Positions 31,237-42,433 of a DNA stretch of 61,958 nt are shown here, one piece after another. The DNA is from Candidatus Parvarchaeota archaeon (lineage in GTDB: Archaea; Nanobdellota; Nanobdellia; WJKC01), in the NCBI GenBank assembly GCA_017608505.1, contig JAFCFT010000004.1, positions 1 to 61,958 of the forward strand, written 5' to 3'. Position 1 is the first letter of the stretch, and every line of letters starts with the position of its first letter. The notes under the pieces were generated by a model. That model saw only the letters and a program-made list of their open reading frames with translations, searched no databases and was not told the DNA's origin. Both the position numbers and the translations under genes were made by a program.

Positions 31237-31521
31237 CCCTATAATACATCTTTATTTATTGCCGGAATCGGGTTAGATGTGTAAGTAATCTAAGGATTCC
31301 TTACGAAACAGGCGTTAATGGTTACGTGAGAGTGAAGTCCAAGGAATACATTTGTGTTCCCCAACGTACTCTATCCAATAAACAATTCCAGTTGATCCTG
31401 CTGGAGGCCACTGCTATTGGAGTTCGTTAGGCATGCAAGTCGAGGAGTGACTTTTCACTCCTGGCGGACGGTCCAGTAACACGTAGGTAACCTGCCCATG
31501 AGAGGGGGATAACCTCGGGAA

Positions 31522-31966
31522 TGACACCACAGCAACAATTTTAAGATCTTAAAATCTTAAATAAAAAAATGGCAACTATAGATTACATTGCGGGTTTCTT
31601 TGATGGAGAAGGTTCATTGATTATCAGATTTAAAAAAGACAAAAGATATAAAACAGGGATGTTTGTTGAACCAGTGATCAATATTACCCAAAAAGATAAA
31701 CATATTTTGGAGATAATACAACAAAAATACGGAGGAAAAATATATTACCACAAGACAAGTTATGGTACTACAATATTTGGAAATTAAATGATGTTAAAAG
31801 ATTTGCTTTGATGTTGAAGAACAAGTTGGTTATTAAAGCAGACCAATTAAATTGTTTCTTAAAATGCATAGATTATATCTCAATGAAAAAGCATCTTTCT
31901 AAAAGAGGCTTAAGAGAAATAATGTTGCTGTGGAAATCAAACCACATAGGTTTGAATGTCCCCGAA
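31522..31966 (+). mobile_element. 16S intron 1 (about E. coli 160), 445 nt
   Basis: BHB: CGGG/CCCG helix, AA|T and AA|A bulges; removal restores CCTCGGGAAACTGAGG. Confidence 0.92.
31569..31966 (+). pseudogene. Single-motif LAGLIDADG endonuclease, frameshifted near 31754
   Basis: YIAGFFDGEGS; the -1 frame continues DKLWYYNIW...KHLSKRGL. Confidence 0.85.
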
Positions 31967-32565
31967 ACTGAGGACAATACCCCATAGGCGATGGATTCTG
32001 GAATGACCCATCGCTGAAAGGGGCATGGGGAATAGCCCATGTCTGCTCATGGATGGGCCTGCGGCGGATTAGGCTGTTGGTGGTGTAACGGACCACCAAA
32101 CCTAAGATCCGTAGGGGCATTGAAAGATGATGCCTCGGGAAGGGCACTGAGACAAGGGCCCTAGTCCTAAGGGGTGCAGCAGTCACGAAGTCTCCGCAAT
32201 GCGCGAAAGCGTGACGGGGGAACTCCAAGTGCGCTATCACTGATGGTGCTGTGGCGAAGTGTAAACAGCTTCGCAAGAAAGGGGTGGGCAAGACTGGTGC
32301 CAGCAGCCGCGGTAATCCCAGCGCCTCAAGTGGTGGCCATGTTTATTGGGCCTAAAGCATCCGTAGCCGGACTAGTAAGTCCTCTGTGAAATCGACCAGC
32401 TTAACTGTTCGGCGTGCAGAGGATACTGCTAGTCTAGGGACCGGGAGGGGTCAGGGGTATTCCTGGGGTAAGGGTTAAATCTTATAATCCCAGGAGGACC
32501 ATCGGTGGCGAAGGCGCCTGACTAGAACGGGTCCGACGGTGATAGGATGAAAGCTGGGGGAGCGA

Positions 32566-33372
32566 ATTGCAATTAGAGGAAAGTAATAAATACTTGGACT
32601 TCCTTAGGGTATCAATGCGGATTAGAAAAATAATAGAACTAGGCAGTTTCTTACTTTCCGATGGTGGTGTAAGTCCCAGAGGCAAAAAAAGTTGGACAAT
32701 ATACTTGAGAAACAAAGACAGAAAAATAATTGAAGAATTTCAAAATTTACTTAAGCAACTTTCAGGAAGAACAGGGTACATAATACACAAACCAGATGGA
32801 ACACATATTGTGAAGATACATAACAAAGAATTAGGGGATGAATTATTAAATGTGTTTAACACATTAAGAACGACTCGATGTGAAACGTATCCTTCATGCA
32901 GAAAAAGAAATGTATGTAAGAGATGCAATGAAAAACGAGATTATCCACATATTACAATACCTAAAATATTATACGAAAGTAGAAAGCTAAGTATAAAGTT
33001 TATTAGAAATTACATATCTTGTGATGGAGGTGTTGGATTAAGTATAGGATTAAAAAACAAGTCTTACTTTTTAGTAAGAAAAGTATTCATCGAATGCAAA
33101 AACCCAGGGTTAAAAGAGAATTTGATAACCCTTTTAGAAAATTTAGGATACACTCCAAAAACATATGGCAACCAAATTAGATTAACAACAAAGAAAGACA
33201 TTATTAAATTTAAAAAAGAAATAGGATTCATAAAAGGCTGTAAGATAACCAAACATTCTCAAAGGTTTAAGGGTAAAGAAAAAAATTGGTTGTTGAGTCA
33301 AATGATAAAATCTTATCAAAACCCTAAGGAATTCATCCAAGTATTATTATGAGTACTCTATTGCAAGCTTAA
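32566..33372 (+). mobile_element. 16S intron 2 (about 781), 807 nt
   Basis: GAGC/GCTT helix, GA|A and AA|A bulges, long terminal stem. Confidence 0.92.
32615..33352 (+). CDS. Double-motif LAGLIDADG homing endonuclease
   Basis: ELGSFLLSDGGV and FIRNYISCDGGV; F.KEIGF. Confidence 0.85.
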   Translation: MRIRKIIELGSFLLSDGGVSPRGKKSWTIYLRNKDRKIIEEFQNLLKQLSGRTGYIIHKPDGTHIVKIHNKELGDELLNVFNTLRTTRCETYPSCRKRNVCKRCNEKRDYPHITIPKILYESRKLSIKFIRNYISCDGGVGLSIGLKNKSYFLVRKVFIECKNPGLKENLITLLENLGYTPKTYGNQIRLTTKKDIIKFKKEIGFIKGCKITKHSQRFKGKEKNWLLSQMIKSYQNPKEFIQVLL

Positions 33373-33384
33373 AACGGATTAGAT

Positions 33385-33420
33385 TCCGACCTCAGCATAC
33401 ACAGGTTGGGTTGGCTAAAA
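33385..33420 (+). other. 16S mini-intron 3 (about 793), 36 nt
   Basis: TTAG/CTAA helix; removal restores GGATTAGATACCC. Confidence 0.92.
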
Positions 33421-33508
33421 ACCCGTGTAGTCCCAGCCGTAAACGCTGCCCGTTAGGTGTTGCACGTCTCTTGAGGGCGTGCAGTGCCGAAGCGAAGGCA
33501 TTAAACGG

Positions 33509-33542
<34 letters not shown>

Positions 33543-33578
33543 TAAAGGAATTGGCGGGGGAACACAACAAGGGGTGCC

Positions 33579-34374
33579 AAGAGGATAGGATGAAACAAAT
33601 TAAGTAGTAAGTAAATCTTATTAATTACAACAACCTACTTTAACCGCATGCCACGCTTGTCGTACAGCAAGCAAGAATTAATAAGTGCCTTTAACAGACT
33701 AAGTAAACTAACAAATAATTTTTCTGACATTAAAGAAGAAATACTATCAGAAAATCCAAAATTTATGAGGGTCTTTAGAATGCTAATTAAAAAAAGCTTA
33801 CATGAAATGAGTACATTGACAGGCAAAAACTATATAACAATATCGCAATATGAGAGAGGTAAAATTAAGAAAATTCCATATTCAACGTCCAGAAACATAC
33901 TGAAAAAAATAATACCGTTGTTGCCTAAAAAAATCAGTAAAAAAATATTGATCAACAATTATAAATATTTTAAAGAATTATCAGCGGGCGGAGTTAAACA
34001 AGCAATTCTTAGAGCCGAGAAAATGGAATTAACAAAACAGGAAAAACTAGTCAAAGAATTTTTAATAAAAAATAAAATTAAGCACAAAGAACATGTAAGC
34101 TTTAAAACTAATGTAGGTTTACTAAATTTTGATTTTATAATAAAAGACAGATATGTTGTTGAATGTACTAAAGTAACTAATAAAATGAAAGCAGAATCAC
34201 TTGGTTTTAGAGCGATTAAATTAAAAGAAGCTCATCCAAATTTAAAATTAGTTGCTTTTATACCATCAAATGTCAATAAAGGTTATATCAATAGACTAAT
34301 AGACTACGATTTTATAATTAAAGAAAATAAGATTTACGAACTACTTAATTTAAAGTAATCCTTCTTCTCACCAA
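33579..34374 (+). mobile_element. 16S intron 4 (about 946), 796 nt
   Basis: GGTG/CACC helix, CC|A and AA|T bulges. Confidence 0.9.
33648..34358 (+). CDS. XRE-HTH plus PD-(D/E)xK-like putative homing nuclease
   Basis: ITISQYERG HTH; T.QE...NFDF...VVECTK. Confidence 0.7.
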   Translation: MPRLSYSKQELISAFNRLSKLTNNFSDIKEEILSENPKFMRVFRMLIKKSLHEMSTLTGKNYITISQYERGKIKKIPYSTSRNILKKIIPLLPKKISKKILINNYKYFKELSAGGVKQAILRAEKMELTKQEKLVKEFLIKNKIKHKEHVSFKTNVGLLNFDFIIKDRYVVECTKVTNKMKAESLGFRAIKLKEAHPNLKLVAFIPSNVNKGYINRLIDYDFIIKENKIYELLNLK

Positions 34375-34626
34375 TCGTGCGGTTTAATTGGACCTAACAC
34401 CGTAAATCTCACCAGGGGCGACAGCAGGATGAAGGTCAGTCTGAAGGGCTTACCTAACGCGCTGAGAAGAGGTGCATGGCCGTCGTCAGCTCGTGCTGTG
34501 AAGTGTCCTGTCAAGTCAGGTAACGAGCGAGACCCACGTCTCTAGTTGCTATCATGAGTCTTCGGATTCGTGAGCACACTAGAGAGACTGCCCTCGAAAG
34601 AGGGAGGAAGGCGTGGACCACGGTAG

Positions 34627-35442
34627 ACGGTTGAAGCAACCTTTATAAGCCTTTATTGCTTGGTCAGTATCATGCCACCTACGTCAGTAACAACTAATAA
34701 ATTAATAAATGACTACAAAGAGTTAAAAGAACTAACAGAGAATTTCACTAATTTGCAAAGTAACGTACTTGAAAACAAACCAAGTTATTTATTAGTATTT
34801 AGACTCATGTTAGGATTATCTCAAAATGAACTAGAAAAAGCTATAGGACTAAATTCAAAAAATATTTCTAAATACGAACTTGGGAAAATTAAGAAGATGA
34901 GGAAAAAAACCGCAGAACGGTTTTTAAGGATAATCAGAAAAAAATTAAGCAATACTAGTAAGAGCAATCTCATTAACAATGCAATAAGGATGCAAAATGA
35001 ATCTTCTGGGTGGTTTAAAGCAAACAATGACACAAGCAAAGCATTAGAAGCCAGAAGAAAATCTGCAATAAAAACACTTTCTAAAAGTAAAACACAACAA
35101 GAAAATGTTCTCGAAACACTATTAATAAAGCACAATATTAAATACAAAAGAAACTACCCAATTAGGAATAACATAATTGTAGATTTTTATATACCAGAAA
35201 TACCATTAATCATTGAATGCAAAAAACTAACCACTGCAAAGCCACAAGGACAAAGAAGAAAGATAATGGAATTGGCATACCAAGCGTACAGAATAAGATA
35301 TTTATATCCAAAATATAAAATAATCGCGCTAATTGAAACAAAACTGCCTTTAAGAAAAAGAGATATTGATGAATTAGTTCCTTTTGATAAAATATTCAAA
35401 TCAACAGATTCGTTAATTATGTGGTTGCTTCAATCGACCGAA
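34627..35442 (+). mobile_element. 16S intron 5 (about 1197), 816 nt
   Basis: CGGT/ACCG helix, AG|A and AA|G bulges, 14-bp terminal stem. Confidence 0.92.
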
Positions 35443-35457
35443 GTCAGTATGCCCTGA
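34672..35457 (+). CDS. XRE-HTH plus PD-(D/E)xK-like putative homing nuclease (stop codon lies in the exon)
   Basis: GLSQNEL...ISKYELG; TQQE...IVDFY...IIECKK. Confidence 0.7.
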   Translation: MPPTSVTTNKLINDYKELKELTENFTNLQSNVLENKPSYLLVFRLMLGLSQNELEKAIGLNSKNISKYELGKIKKMRKKTAERFLRIIRKKLSNTSKSNLINNAIRMQNESSGWFKANNDTSKALEARRKSAIKTLSKSKTQQENVLETLLIKHNIKYKRNYPIRNNIIVDFYIPEIPLIIECKKLTTAKPQGQRRKIMELAYQAYRIRYLYPKYKIIALIETKLPLRKRDIDELVPFDKIFKSTDSLIMWLLQSTEVSMP

Positions 35458-35877
35458 ATCCCCTGGGCTACACGCGCGAAGCAATGGCCGGGACAATTGG
35501 ACGCTACACCGAAAGGTGACGCAAATCCCCTAAACCCGGTCGCAGTATGAATCGAGGATTGGAACCCATCCTCGTGAAATCGAAATCCCTAGTAATCGCG
35601 TCTCAGAAAGTCGCGATGAACCTGTCCCTGTTCCTTGCACACACTGCCCATCAAACCACTCGAGTTGAGTATGGGTGAGGCATCATCGTCAGATGGTGTC
35701 GAACCTGTGCTCGATGAGAAGGGTTAAGTTGACACAAGGTATCCGTAGGGGAACCTGCGGATGGATCACCTCCTATTATTTTATCTAATAAGAGGTTAGG
35801 ACTCGCCTCACAATTATTAACGCCTGACCCGATTCCTGTTTATTTTTTCTTAATAGTTTTCTTTCTTATCTTCTTTA

Positions 35878-38227: not shown

Positions 38228-38917
38228 CCAGTCTCTTCTATTTTTGTTTTAGTGGTCGAAATGAGTGCGTAAAATAACACGAAACTTTCTGACAACCCTT
38301 AGAGGTTGTAGACCACGTGTTAAAAAACATATGAGCTCCTTGAGTGAAGGCTCCTGGAGTGATGGCGGATAATATTTATGACGCCGTTGCATAGGCCGGA
38401 ATTAAGTAGTTCACAGGGGACTACTTAGAAACTCTCACTCTTTTGGATGTGAAAGACGCTGTTAGGTGGATGACTTGGCTTGAGTGTCGATGAAGAGCCT
38501 GGCAAGCTGGGATAAGCCCCGGGGAACCGCTATGCAGGTCTCGATCCGGGGATGCTTGAATGGGACTTCCCGCCACTAAGTGATTAGTGGCACTCCGTTA
38601 AGGAGGGAGAACTCGGGGAATCGAAACATCCTAGTACCCGTAGGAAAAGAAACCAATAGGGATGCCGTGAGTAAGGGCGACTGAAAGCGGCACAGGGCAA
38701 ACCGAACCCTGTTAGGCGACTAGCAGGGGATGTGGGGTTTTGGACCTCCTATTGAGCACTCGCAAGCGAATCCAAAGTCCGCTGGAACGCGGCGCCATAG
38801 AGGGTGATAGCCCCTTAGGAGTAAGCAAGCGAGTGTGTGGAGGTATCCAGAGTACTTGGCATTGGAAATTGTCAAGGAATATGGGTGACAACGACATCCA
38901 ACCCTAAATACACCTCA

Positions 38918-38948
<31 letters not shown>

Positions 38949-40190
38949 CGTTGAAAAGAATCCTAAATAGGGAAGTGAAAAGAGCCTGAAACCTAACAGC
39001 CACGGTTGATTGCGGCCTAAAAGAGCTCGCGAGAGAAGAGAAGCTGAGTAATCAGTGGATCTATCACGCGAGTAGTCGAGGTTGCAACATCATTTTGGGA
39101 TAAATGGCCAGGGAGTTTACGTCAGTGGCGAGACAAACGGCGAAAAACCGTGTGTCGCAGCGAAAGCAACAAGCCCGCAGGCAACGAGGGGCGGGGTGTG
39201 AAAGCGCCCGGAGTCACTGGCGTAAGACCCGAAGCCGGTCGATCTAGCCCTGGGCAAGGTGAAGTCCCTCGAAAGAGGGGTGGAGGCCTGAAGCAGTTCT
39301 GTGTACAGGCGTTTGTCTGACCTGGGGCTAGGAGTGAAAAACTAATCGTGATCGGCGATAGCTGGTTCCTCCCGAAGTAGGCTACAGTCTAGCCTCGCCT
39401 GAGATAGTATGAGGGGTAGAGCTACCAATCGGGTGTTTAGGGTTCGAAAGAGCTCGGCATCCGGTTGAACTCCGAATCCTCATACATCGTAGACGGCGGG
39501 AGTCGGGGGCTCGGGTTAAGCTCGGGTTCCGAGAGAGGAACAACTCAGACAGGGGTTAAGGCCCTTAAATCCTGACTAAGTGAGGAAAGGCATTCATGCC
39601 CTAAAACAATGGGGAGGTAGGCTTAGAAGTAGCCATCCTATAATGAGTGTGTAACAACTCACCCATCTAGGGCATGGGTCCTGAAAATGGACGGGACTAA
39701 GTCAGGTGCCGATACCCCTGGCCCCAAGACGAAAGTCTTGGTGACGCGGTAGGGAGGCGTCCTGCGTGCGTAGAAGCAAGGCCGTGAGGTCTTGTGGAGC
39801 GCGTCGGATTGAGAATCCTGGCAGTAGTAGCATCTGAGAAGGGTGAGAACCCCTTCCGGCGAAAGGGCAAGGGTTCCTCAGCTCTGCATGGTCAACTGAG
39901 GGTTAGTCGGTCCTAAGGGTTACCTTAATCGGGAAGCCCGAAAGGGAAACGGGTTTATATTCCCGTACCACTCCTGTACGTGCGGCGACGCAAGGCAGGT
40001 GGTCGTGACGCTTCCGGGTAGGCTCTGCAAAGCTATCGCTTTGTCTAAAAGGGATAGGCCTGGGGAGTAACGTAATGTTGAGAACCAGGTTAAACCTTGA
40101 ATGGACTGCCGCAAGGCGGTTAGAGCCGATCCCTGGAGCCCGTGAAAAACGAGCCTGCAAGGATCAGGAGTGACCGTACCCAGAACCGGC

Positions 40191-41096
40191 AGGATGTCAC
40201 CGGAGGGTTTATATACTTATGCGTACTTAGAACCAACACGTGAAATTTGATATAACAAGATTAGACTACGAAAAGGACAAAGATTACAGAGAATTAATAA
40301 GAGTTGACGGACACACTTTCAGGGATTTATTTGTGAATAAAAGCACTAAAGAATGGAGTACATTACTAGGTGTGTCTAAAAAACAGATTAGACTATGGAA
40401 ATCAGGAAAAATAAGGATTCCATTAAGAGTTTTGTTAAAGTTAGGAAAGAAAAATAGAATAGTAGGAAATGTTAAAAAATTATATCTATACAGTGGGAAA
40501 TCAGTGATTATCCCAGAAGGCCTGAACGAATTGCTATGTGAATTTGTAGGAAGGCACTGTGGTGATGGTTCAATAACAATAAAAAACAATGACTATAGGA
40601 TTGTATTAACAGAGAGTCCAGAGTTCCTGAAAATGCATGCAAAAGACATTGAAAATCTATTTGGAATAAAACCAAAGATTAGAATAATTAGCAAAAAGTA
40701 TGGACGAGTGATTTTCAGTTCGAAAATAATTGTAAGATTCTTAGAACAGTTTTTTGATATTAAGCATGGACCTAAAACACATACAATAACCGAACCAAAG
40801 ATTATCAGAAATTCAAAGATTAATCACCGAATTGCTTTTGTTAAAGGCCTAATCAATACTGAAGGAAGCGTATATAAATCCAATAGAGCATATTATTTTG
40901 AAATTAAACTAGTGAATAAAAATTTATTAAATTCTGTAAAGGAAATATTTGATTTATTAAGAATAAAGTATTATTATATGATTAAAGGAAATTACTACAC
41001 AATCAGAGTCCTCGGTTTGAAAGAGATTGATAAAATTAATAGATTAATAGGATTTAATAACCCACGTATAAAAATCCCTCCGATGCGTCCCGGTAA
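40191..41096 (+). mobile_element. 23S intron (about 1615), 906 nt
   Basis: ACCG/CGGT helix, GC|A and AA|A bulges; removal restores AACCGGCACAGGTG. Confidence 0.92.
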
Positions 41097-41151
41097 ACAG
41101 GTGCCCCTAGCTGAGAAGGCTAAGCCGTGTAGGGAGAACCATGGTCAGTGA
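40240..41151 (+). CDS. Double-motif LAGLIDADG endonuclease with N-terminal HTH-like segment
   Basis: EFVGRHCGDGS, FVKGLINTEGS; ORF runs into the downstream exon. Confidence 0.88.
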   Translation: MKFDITRLDYEKDKDYRELIRVDGHTFRDLFVNKSTKEWSTLLGVSKKQIRLWKSGKIRIPLRVLLKLGKKNRIVGNVKKLYLYSGKSVIIPEGLNELLCEFVGRHCGDGSITIKNNDYRIVLTESPEFLKMHAKDIENLFGIKPKIRIISKKYGRVIFSSKIIVRFLEQFFDIKHGPKTHTITEPKIIRNSKINHRIAFVKGLINTEGSVYKSNRAYYFEIKLVNKNLLNSVKEIFDLLRIKYYYMIKGNYYTIRVLGLKEIDKINRLIGFNNPRIKIPPMRPGKQVPLAEKAKPCRENHGQ

Positions 41152-41160
41152 AATCGGCAA

Positions 41161-41197
41161 ATGACGCAGAGATGTTGTAACTTCTGTGTCAGCCGAG
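41161..41197 (+). other. 23S mini-intron (about 1677), 37 nt
   Basis: CGGC/GCCG helix; removal restores CGGCAAATTGGCCCCG. Confidence 0.92.
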
Positions 41198-42216
41198 ATT
41201 GGCCCCGTAACTTCGGGAGAAGGGGTCTCAGCGGTCGTGCTCTTAAGGGTGCGATTGCTGGGGTCACTGACTAGGGGGGTCCGACTGTTTAATAAAAACA
41301 TAACTGGCTGCAAAACCGAAAGGTTTAGTATAGCCGGTGACGCCTGCCCAGTGCGAGTATCCGAAACCTGGGTTCAACCGGGCCAAGGACTCGTAAACGG
41401 CGGGCCTAACCTTGAGGCTCTTAAGGTAGCGTGATGCCTTGCCATTTAAATGATGGCGTGTCTGAGTGGCGTAACGAGATCCCCACTGTACCGACCATGG
41501 ACCCTGTGAACATATCGTCCTGGTGTAGAGACCAGGGACCCCCAGTGGGTTGATAAGACCCTTGGATCTTTACTGCAGCCTGACGCTGCTCTATGGGGTG
41601 TGTTGTATAGGGTAGTCGGGAGACGTAGAAGCGATGACGTCAGTTGTCGTGGAGTCAACGATGTAACACCGACCTTCACATCTTGTAGGGCTAACCCGAA
41701 AGGGGACACCGTTTGGTGGGCAGTTTGGCTGGGGCGGCACGCCGGCGAAAAGATATCACCGGCGCCCAAAGGTCAGCTCAGGGAGGTCAGAACTCTCCCG
41801 TTGAGTGCAAGAGCAAAAGCTGGCCTGACTGGAATCCGCAATGCGAGGATTCCAGGGGCGAAAGCCTGGTCTAGCGAACCGCTGTGTGCCTCTCGTTGAG
41901 GCCCAGTGACGACAGAGAAGTTACCCAAGGGATAATGGAGCTGTCTCGCCCGAGAGTCCATATTGACGGCGAGGCTTGCTACGTCGATGTCGGCTCTTCC
42001 TATCCTGGCCGTGCAGCAGCGGCCAAGGGTGCGGGTGTTCACCGATTAAAAGGGATCGTGAGCTGGGTTTAGAACGCGGTGACGCAGTTCGGCTTATAAC
42101 TACTGGGGGTGCGCAGTGCCTGAGCGGAAGGTCCTCTTAGTACGAAAGGAACGGAGGGTCGGCGCCTCTAGTCTACCAGTTGTCCGACAGGGCAGGCTGG
42201 GCAGCCACGCGCTAGT

Positions 42217-42249
<33 letters not shown>

Positions 42250-42433
42250 ATCCGCGAAAAGAGGCACTGATAGGGCTGTCATAGAAGATGACGTTGATAG
42301 GAACGGGGTGTAAGCACCGAGGCAACGAGGTGTTCAGCCCGCGTTCACTAATCGCCCTGACACATCACAAAATAAGTGAGGGTTTAAGTCCCCTGTTTTC
42401 CGGCCTTGCAACGGTTGTTCATTTTTTATAATC

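Follow-up and report, generated by a model that had tools for sequence, protein, structure and literature searches.

How the endonuclease genes that reside inside archaeal ribosomal RNA (rRNA) introns are expressed, and how they are contained, is poorly understood. The question is raised by a 61,958-nucleotide (nt) stretch of DNA from Candidatus Parvarchaeota archaeon (contig JAFCFT010000004.1, C15 in the present analysis and hereafter the window), which constitutes one of the 22 contigs of an archaeal genome of 0.92 Mb and carries an rRNA operon with introns in both large rRNA genes. An 18-nt element in the intron of the 23S rRNA gene resembles the exon junction at which the intron is inserted and is placed just ahead of the start codon of an intron-encoded homing endonuclease. 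An original prediction had proposed that this and similar matches at the start of the endonuclease genes in the introns of the 16S rRNA gene are operators through which the endonucleases repress their own promoters, in analogy with the phage endonuclease I-TevI. It is argued below that the 23S element has probably been maintained by selection, that self-repression is, tentatively, the mechanism that accounts for it best and that such copies of homing sites do not constitute a rule among archaeal introns.

The 23S intron and the element ahead of its endonuclease gene

The 16S (31385-35774) and 23S (38441-42371) rRNA genes of the window are both much longer than the corresponding Rfam models, and alignment with intron-less rRNA genes of the same genus (L052, L007) showed the 16S to contain four large insertions and the 23S a single one. 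The intron ends were assigned from this alignment together with a canonical 3-4-3 bulge-helix-bulge (BHB) at each junction, in which 4 base pairs separate two 3-nt bulges and cleavage follows the second base of the bulge. The BHB at the expected boundaries scores best or ties for best in all the five large introns, and likewise in a mini-intron described further below; a de novo BHB scanner was discarded as it returned false matches and missed known introns. For the 23S intron, the expected BHB ties with one other candidate, and the alignment to the intron-less 23S decided between the two. The features of the 23S locus, including the open reading frame (ORF) of the endonuclease, are the following.

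40191-41096, + strand: 23S intron, 906 nt, with a BHB (central helix 40185-40188/41091-41094, 3-nt bulges at both cuts)
40175-40190, + strand: end of 23S exon 1 (16 nt), CGTACCCAGAACCGGC, presumed left half-site for homing, from alignment to the intron-less same-genus 23S
41097-41116, + strand: start of 23S exon 2 (20 nt), presumed right half-site for homing, of which the mimic reproduces nothing past +2, from alignment
40208-40215, + strand: TATA-like box TTTATATA, 8/8 to TTTAWATA, centred 28.5 nt upstream of GTG 40240
40222-40239, + strand: homing-site mimic CGTACTTAGAACCAACAC
40240-41151, + strand: homing-endonuclease ORF with an N-terminal helical domain of ~90 amino acids (aa) and a two-domain LAGLIDADG core (LAGLIDADG_3, 34.4 bits against a cut-off of 22.5)

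Splicing was examined for the 23S intron, and is seen in a metatranscriptome contig (depth 3.7) that joins 40190 to 41097 exactly, with 100 flawless nt to the left and 59 nt to the right. Pieces of the intron are present in all three DNA runs, from the contigs of which the direct 40190-41097 join is absent; one X1 contig joins 40153 to 41097 via 35 other letters.

The mimic agrees at 14 of 18 positions with the junction composed of CGTACCCAGAACCGGC followed by AC, corresponding to junction positions -16 to +2, and lies between the TATA-like box and the GTG, as the original prediction had described. An intact candidate homing site, identical from -16 to +20 and uninterrupted, is present in a genome of the same genus. 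The copy is unsplit, and within the 23S intron the exon 2 half has no + strand match with a score of 7 or more. The probability of such matches was assessed near the start codon (region -60 to +60), using as decoys the ~2,200 other 40-mers of the spliced rRNAs, and over the whole intron, using 300 dinucleotide shuffles per intron. The decoy test gives p 0.020 for the 23S mimic, which by itself is a modest match.

The 23S ORF (285-303 aa) has no stop codon within the intron and ends at a TGA in exon 2 (41149-41151); on a circular intron it would stop at a TAG inside the mimic (40228-40230), which is made by a CC-to-TT difference from the exon. An alignment of 11 members of the family shows G108, D109, G110 and G209 to be invariant, and both LAGLIDADG motifs retain their acidic residues (GDG, TEG). 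The AlphaFold2 model of the protein has a predicted local distance difference test score (pLDDT) of 91.6 and a core resembling I-DmoI, with chains matching at E ~1e-8 and template modelling (TM) scores on the target of 0.63-0.70. The ORF is predicted to encode a LAGLIDADG homing endonuclease with a monomeric two-domain fold. With the N-terminal 94 aa alone (model pLDDT 62.5), the matches listed by Foldseek are mostly Cro/C1/XRE-type repressors and controller proteins (E 0.06-0.4).

Relatives of the ORF were absent from contigs representing one genome per species, whether the single sequence or the alignment A2 was the query, and a word-based protein search retrieved only the protein itself. 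An exhaustive HMMER search identified a family of 681 proteins at E <=0.001, four of them at E <=1e-30, and a scan of metagenome contigs yielded 66 loci, 10 of them at the same 23S position. Several distant LAGLIDADG homologues outside rRNA genes (L081, L086, L087, L089, L090, L094, L096, L097 and L100) have a tRNA gene ~20-95 nt downstream on the same strand.

The same-site loci carry the strongest evidence. Seven distinct introns at this site, the window included, were compared, leaving out L074, L077 and L095 (near-identical to L073, L076 and L075, respectively, in the stretches compared) and L079 (without the 5' part). Two of them, L070 and L071, which were found after the window match and through the protein alone, carry a mimic in the same slot as that of the window, with a TATA-like box ~28 nt upstream of the ATG. 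The L070 element, CATACCAATAACCGAC, matches its own exon 1, CGTACCAAAAACCGAC, at 14/16 positions (decoy p 0.0005) and the L071 element, CGTACCAAGAATCGAT, matches its own exon 1, CGTACCGAGAACCGAT, likewise at 14/16 (decoy p 0.0067), each ending one base before the ATG. The window protein shares 34% identity with those of L070 and L071, which are 53% identical to each other; the protein tree is star-shaped and unresolved, with ~1 change per column on its end branches and a path of 2.4 changes per column from the window to L070; and only the TATA box and the mimic can be aligned between the intron 5' region of the window and those of L070 and L071. Such divergence is more than a neutral 16-mer would be expected to survive. 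The 23S element is likely to be under selection because a near-copy is kept in the same slot despite the deep divergence of L070 and L071 from the window.

A TATA box at about this distance from the start codon is typical of archaeal promoters with leaderless transcripts. TATA-like 8-mers with their centre 24-31 nt ahead of the start codon are found in 13 of the 21 introns analysed here, including all the five large introns of the window and all the seven introns with a mimic, the expectation for this slot being ~0.05-0.4 matches per intron. This geometry fits internal promoters and leaderless transcripts.

The mechanism that best accommodates these observations would be as follows. Selection would have preserved the 18-nt element as a copy of the left half of the site at which the intron-encoded endonuclease homes, and the element would stand between an intron-internal promoter and the start codon, the latter being probably also the transcript start. 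The LAGLIDADG core, along with its extra, putatively Cro-like N-terminal domain, would bind the element as it would bind the intron-less 23S gene, and cleavage would be prevented by the missing right half of the site; binding of the 23S mimic without cutting is plausible because that half-site is not in the copy. The mimics identified in this study span -18 to +21 of the start codon, a stretch in which a bound protein would block recruitment of the polymerase. In the 23S intron, protein on -18 to -1 would exclude RNA polymerase from the gene's own promoter, and the level of a potentially harmful nuclease would stay low. Self-repression of the I-TevI kind, with a putative promoter, presumed binding without cutting and presumed repression, is offered tentatively as the best-fitting mechanism for the 23S element; should it prove wrong, the conserved element would still need an explanation.

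The I-TevI analogy, invoked in the original prediction, is a real one. According to a review (PMC2988022), the operator of I-TevI, encoded in the td group I intron of phage T4, shares 15/20 positions with its homing site (Edgell et al. 2004) and overlaps a late promoter; it is bound equally to the homing site and cut ~100-fold less.

Matches in the introns of the 16S gene

The four large introns of the 16S gene, referred to here as I1 to I4, and a small fifth intron were analysed in the same manner.

31522-31966, + strand: intron I1 (alignment and BHB)
31569-31787, + strand: truncated LAGLIDADG_1 ORF of I1, 72 aa (Pfam)
32566-33372, + strand: intron I2, 807 nt (alignment and BHB)
32607-32626, + strand: I2 mimic, 15/20, junction -9 to +11, extending across the junction and containing both ATG 32615 and the 9-mer of the original prediction (decoy p 0.014)
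32615-33352, + strand: LAGLIDADG ORF of I2 (LAGLIDADG_3, 43.6 bits)
33385-33420, + strand: BHB mini-intron without ORF, 36 nt, the original prediction's intron 3 (central helix 4/4, inner helix 7 pairs)
33579-34374, + strand: intron I3, the original prediction's intron 4 (alignment and BHB)
33639-33650, + strand: inverted match TTTAACCGCATG in I3, 10/12, at chance level (reached by 232/300 shuffles; decoy p 0.28)
33648-34358, + strand: I3 ORF, paralogue of the I4 ORF (33% identity), within the intron 33579-34374
34627-35442, + strand: intron I4, the original prediction's intron 5, 816 nt (alignment and BHB, score 17)
34641-34648, + strand: TATA-like box of I4; a neighbouring 8-mer, TTTATAAG, matches at 6/8 and is centred 26.5 nt upstream of ATG 34672
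34662-34670, + strand: I4 mimic copy 1, GGTCAGTAT, junction match from -1 to +8, 9/9
34680-34689, + strand: I4 mimic copy 2, TACGTCAGTA, junction match from -3 to +7, 9/10, within codons 3-6, previously unnoticed
34672-35457, + strand: I4 ORF, helix-turn-helix (HTH) plus putative PD-(D/E)XK nuclease, reading into exon 2 (all Pfam matches below cut-off)

The introns numbered 4 and 5 in the original prediction correspond to I3 and I4 because the mini-intron had been counted as intron 3. All the four matches that it described are present as written, namely the 14/18 match of the 23S intron, 9/9 in I4, 9/9 in I2 (CGGATTAGA, 32618-32626) and the inverted 10/12 in I3.

In the 23S intron as well as in I2 and I4, the single best + strand match over 800-900 nt falls at the start codon. 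The two copies in I4 flank ATG 34672, both within 20 nt of it, and no other + strand match in the 816 nt has a score of 7 or more. The decoy p of the I4 match is 0.023, and the matches in I2 and I4, together with that in the 23S intron, are nominally above chance at the ORF start (p 0.014-0.023); in I3, by contrast, the claim of a match better than chance did not hold. The whole-intron shuffles, proposed at the outset as a check, are unimpressive for these three introns, the observed best being reached by 24/300 in I4, 28/300 in I2 and 63/300 in the 23S intron. No mimic was found in I1, as had been noted earlier (300/300 shuffles reach the observed best; decoy p 0.96), and its absence from an intron with a truncated ORF is counted in favour of self-repression. 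Introns I4 and I2 may work like the 23S element.

Homologues of the 16S-encoded proteins were searched for in 401 genomes of the class. The I4 protein matched seven genomes, G000 included, with none of the five loci scanned with Rfam (L062-L065 and L069; L066 and L067 lay outside the scan) in rRNA; the I2 protein matched 16 genomes, again including G000, with none of the 16 loci screened in rRNA. Therefore, the 16S mimics are not traceable in kin.

The ORFs of I3 and I4 possess, towards the C-terminus, a D...E-x-K motif, with D171, F172 and E182 invariant in four sequences, and also a sub-threshold HTH_3 region (22.0 bits in I4; cut-off 23). Of the PD-(D/E)XK families, DUF559 is found in 1/4 members (17.5 bits against a cut-off of 20.6) and HSDR_N_2 in 2/4 (E 0.009), and a profile search of the PDB with the family matched the HTH part only (E 0.12). 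A profile comparison of the 23S protein with the I4 protein gave no support for homology of their N-terminal domains (hhalign probability 0.2%). The earlier suggestion that two unrelated nuclease families share the same logic depends on the single intron I4, the paralogue I3 being at chance level and the PD-(D/E)XK assignment being sub-threshold.

A few further observations pertain to these introns. Relatives of the I3/I4 protein that are free-standing outside rRNA genes occur in L062 (G335), L063 (G347) and L064 (G050) at 28-34% identity, and this predicted HTH-plus-nuclease family is thus not confined to introns. By eye, codons 5-7 of the I3 and I4 ORFs (33660-33668 and 34683-34690) each resemble the start of their own exon 2: TCGTACAG against TCGTGCGG in I3 (6/8, alone not significant) and GTCAGTAA against GTCAGTAT in I4 (7/8). 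The 816 nt of I4 equal 272 codons with no in-frame stop, which would give an endless frame if circularised, and on a linear transcript the ORF ends at a TGA in exon 2 (35455-35457). The mini-intron shares its 16S position with a 742-nt ORF-bearing intron of G033 (L058), and an insertion is present there in a same-genus genome also; it may be a remnant left after loss of an ORF. The 16S gene of the window carries five introns, and in a survey of 151 genomes from the class, 98 of which gave a 16S match (several of these ending at contig ends), ORF-size 16S introns, as judged by span, occur only in G027 and G033.

Generality of the mimics and alternative explanations

The recurrence of the mimics was examined in 21 BHB introns, a match being considered to lie at the start if the single best + strand match to the intron's own junction, over the whole intron, falls within -25 to +35 of the start codon (chance ~0.09 per intron). 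The five introns of the window, from which the idea itself came, give 3/5 at the start (binomial p 0.0056; Fisher p 0.003). To the same-site introns were added all the other BHB introns with an ORF that could be delimited, outside the 23S family: four from G027, one from G010, two from G033, one from G047, and those of L078 and L099 (L098 was dropped as kin of L099). The rRNA surveys of the class covered 151 genomes each and provided few ORF-bearing BHB introns. Most of the 23S insertions in the relatives share one site, lack a BHB and have common starting motifs (checked for L013, L025, L027, L028 and L168, the others being assigned by position), and look like group I introns. Insertions of 265-1184 nt at one 23S site (spliced position ~2088) were recorded in L013, L025, L027, L028, L163-L166 and L168-L170. 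The counts exclude the group I-like insertions, among them L168 (p 0.14), and also the first of the insertions in L137, which is of unclear type.

Over all the 21 introns the best match is at the start in seven (binomial p 0.0017), and recurrence is seen in four of the 16 further introns, two of which are kin of the 23S intron and one of which is weak. A good independent case is provided by a 16S intron of G033, at another site and in another family of the class, in which GATTAG....CCCGGTA directly follows the ATG and matches 13/17 positions across the intron's own junction (p 0.021), the four central bases being all changed.

Several results weigh against self-repression or against its generality, in addition to those given with the alternatives below. 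The hypothesis, the tested region and the scoring were all chosen post hoc, and the decoys from the window's own rRNA were applied also to introns of other genomes. The replication set (n=16) gives 4/16 at the start with binomial p 0.049 and Fisher p 0.125, and without kin (n=14) the values are 3/14, 0.14 and 0.31. The match in L078 (9/10 over its ATG) is weak (p 0.10). Within the 23S family, the same test finds no mimic in four of the seven distinct same-site introns (L072, L073, L075 and L076), and L072 and L075 keep the N-terminal domain yet have no mimic; L076 is devoid of that domain, its ORF starting just before the first LAGLIDADG motif. The support for an HTH in the N-terminal domain is weak, given the Foldseek E-values and the low pLDDT mentioned above, and Pfam HTH_3 is found below the cut-off in 3/11 members of the family (best E 0.002). 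The one RNA run has no depth inside the 23S intron. The mimic is real in one family and plausibly present in a few others. A wider proposal, in which homing-site copying is a recurrent form of self-control of archaeal intron endonuclease genes, having arisen independently in LAGLIDADG and HTH-plus-PD-(D/E)XK-like enzymes with the aid of a recruited Cro-like domain, and in which the nucleases would double as transcription factors and represent an intermediate towards a WhiA-like regulator, appears quite improbable at present.

A non-regulatory footprint would be left if part of the target sequence was picked up as the endonuclease gene invaded the intron or shifted its position there, or if the element was kept for a reason unrelated to expression. 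In support of such an origin, and counting against self-repression, 7/8 of the differences between mimic and exon in the three mimics are G/C to A/T transitions, as in decay in an A+T-rich genome. With an exon that changes slowly, moreover, even plain decay would leave each mimic more similar to its own exon than to the mimics of the other introns, and the occurrence among related introns is patchy. However, 12 to 14 of 16 positions are kept at a protein divergence that should scramble a neutral 16-mer. The model of invasion by endonuclease ORFs, reportedly put forward by Loizos, Tillier and Belfort in 1994, is said to involve a target-like sequence split by the ORF, but no + strand match to the exon 2 half scoring 7 or more is found near the 3' end of the 23S ORF, and both the halves stand together in or at the ORF start in I2 and in the 16S intron of G033. 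A footprint is, on balance, an unlikely explanation.

Chance would suffice, at least for the 16S introns, if short matches were picked by eye among many comparisons of strand, exon and place. The result for I3 is what chance would give, I2, I4 and the 23S intron each reach only nominal p-values in a region selected post hoc, the whole-intron shuffles are weaker still, and outside the 23S family only 2/10 of the other introns have their best match at the start, one of them at p 0.10. On the other hand, L070 and L071, which came to light later and through their proteins, show stronger matches in the same slot; the two copies in I4 are its only matches scoring 7 or more, both near the ATG; and the G033 match lies across the junction right after the ATG at another site and in another family. 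Chance is, accordingly, considered a doubtful account of the matches.

A role at the level of RNA has been considered as well, in which, in the pre-rRNA or the excised intron, base-pairing between the element and the first codons masks or exposes the start codon and restricts translation to certain forms of the RNA, or in which the element provides signals on the circular intron, its likeness to the exon being secondary. Both L070 (160-235) and L071 (420-495) contain a strong inverted repeat forming a hairpin with the ATG in the loop and the mimic as the 5' arm, at -18.8 and -17.8 kcal/mol (z -3.3 and -3.9), respectively, an equally stable fold being reached by 2/200 and 0/200 shuffles. The arms co-vary between the two even where the mimic departs from the exon, two pairs being changed on both sides (T-A against G-C, C-G against T-A), and the loop length varies (11 against 14 nt), a feature more in keeping with RNA than with a protein dimer of fixed geometry; these three observations fit a role of the RNA too, which counts against self-repression. 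Further, the TAG within the element would stop the ORF on a circularised 23S intron, and the T4 review (PMC2988022) describes a hairpin that limits I-TevI translation, T4 employing both an operator and a hairpin for this enzyme. The hairpins are compatible with a palindromic operator as well as with an RNA switch. Two other structural readings were tried and rejected: a copy of an rRNA helix, since the Rfam consensus shows most of this part of the exon as unpaired or engaged in long-range pairs, and a second BHB, formed by the mimic and the intron 3' end and releasing a leaderless mRNA, for which 3/4 central pairs and no inner helix were seen by eye. A role in RNA alone is the least probable of the three alternatives, as the window intron keeps the element without such a hairpin (z 0.13; 105/200 shuffles fold as well), pairing by itself leaves the likeness of the arm to the exon unexplained, no rRNA helix is copied, and the 5' arm would lie outside the mRNA if the transcript starts at the start codon.

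Comparison with known systems

Full-text literature searches found no homing-site-like operators for archaeal BHB introns or LAGLIDADG enzymes, and none for I-DmoI or I-Tsp061I; in a 2015 survey of Thermoproteales 16S introns (PMC4496867), a term search found the words operator, TATA and repress to be absent. Self-repression at the 23S element would mean that these genes are transcribed from TATA promoters of their own, without leaders, and that at least one family limits itself via a non-cleavable copy of its own target.

As in the invasion model, the intron sequence adjoining the ORF resembles the exon junction. In contrast to that model, the copy is whole and stands on one side of the ORF or inside it (23S intron, I2 and the 16S intron of G033). 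The archaeal rRNA intron-encoded enzymes I-DmoI and I-Tsp061I, retrieved as matches from the PDB, share the monomeric two-domain LAGLIDADG fold with the 23S protein (TM on target ~0.65-0.70) but lack the N-terminal domain of ~90 residues, having 176-204 aa against 285 aa here. WhiA, a chain of which (8dy9_I) is among the fold matches of the 23S endonuclease model, is a LAGLIDADG protein with an HTH that binds its own promoter, as stated in the source (PMC3240954), and hence a LAGLIDADG scaffold carrying an HTH can bind its own promoter. Unlike the 23S protein, which keeps the acidic residues of its motifs and has its extra domain at the N-terminus, WhiA carries its HTH at the C-terminus and is no endonuclease.

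The closest parallel is provided by I-TevI, going by the T4 review. In both the systems, a homing-site-like sequence (15/20 positions for I-TevI, 14/18 here) lies upstream of the intron endonuclease ORF, at the promoter of the latter (a putative one in the 23S intron), without what cutting needs. The 23S element differs in its archaeal host and in residing in an rRNA gene within a BHB intron that is cut by the splicing endonuclease of the cell. I-TevI is a GIY-YIG enzyme, whereas the 23S intron encodes a LAGLIDADG enzyme behind a putative TATA-box promoter with a leaderless transcript. If the proposed self-repression is correct, the principle described in the phage would extend to archaea and to the LAGLIDADG family, and the 23S element would represent a natural binding-only half-site for a LAGLIDADG enzyme.

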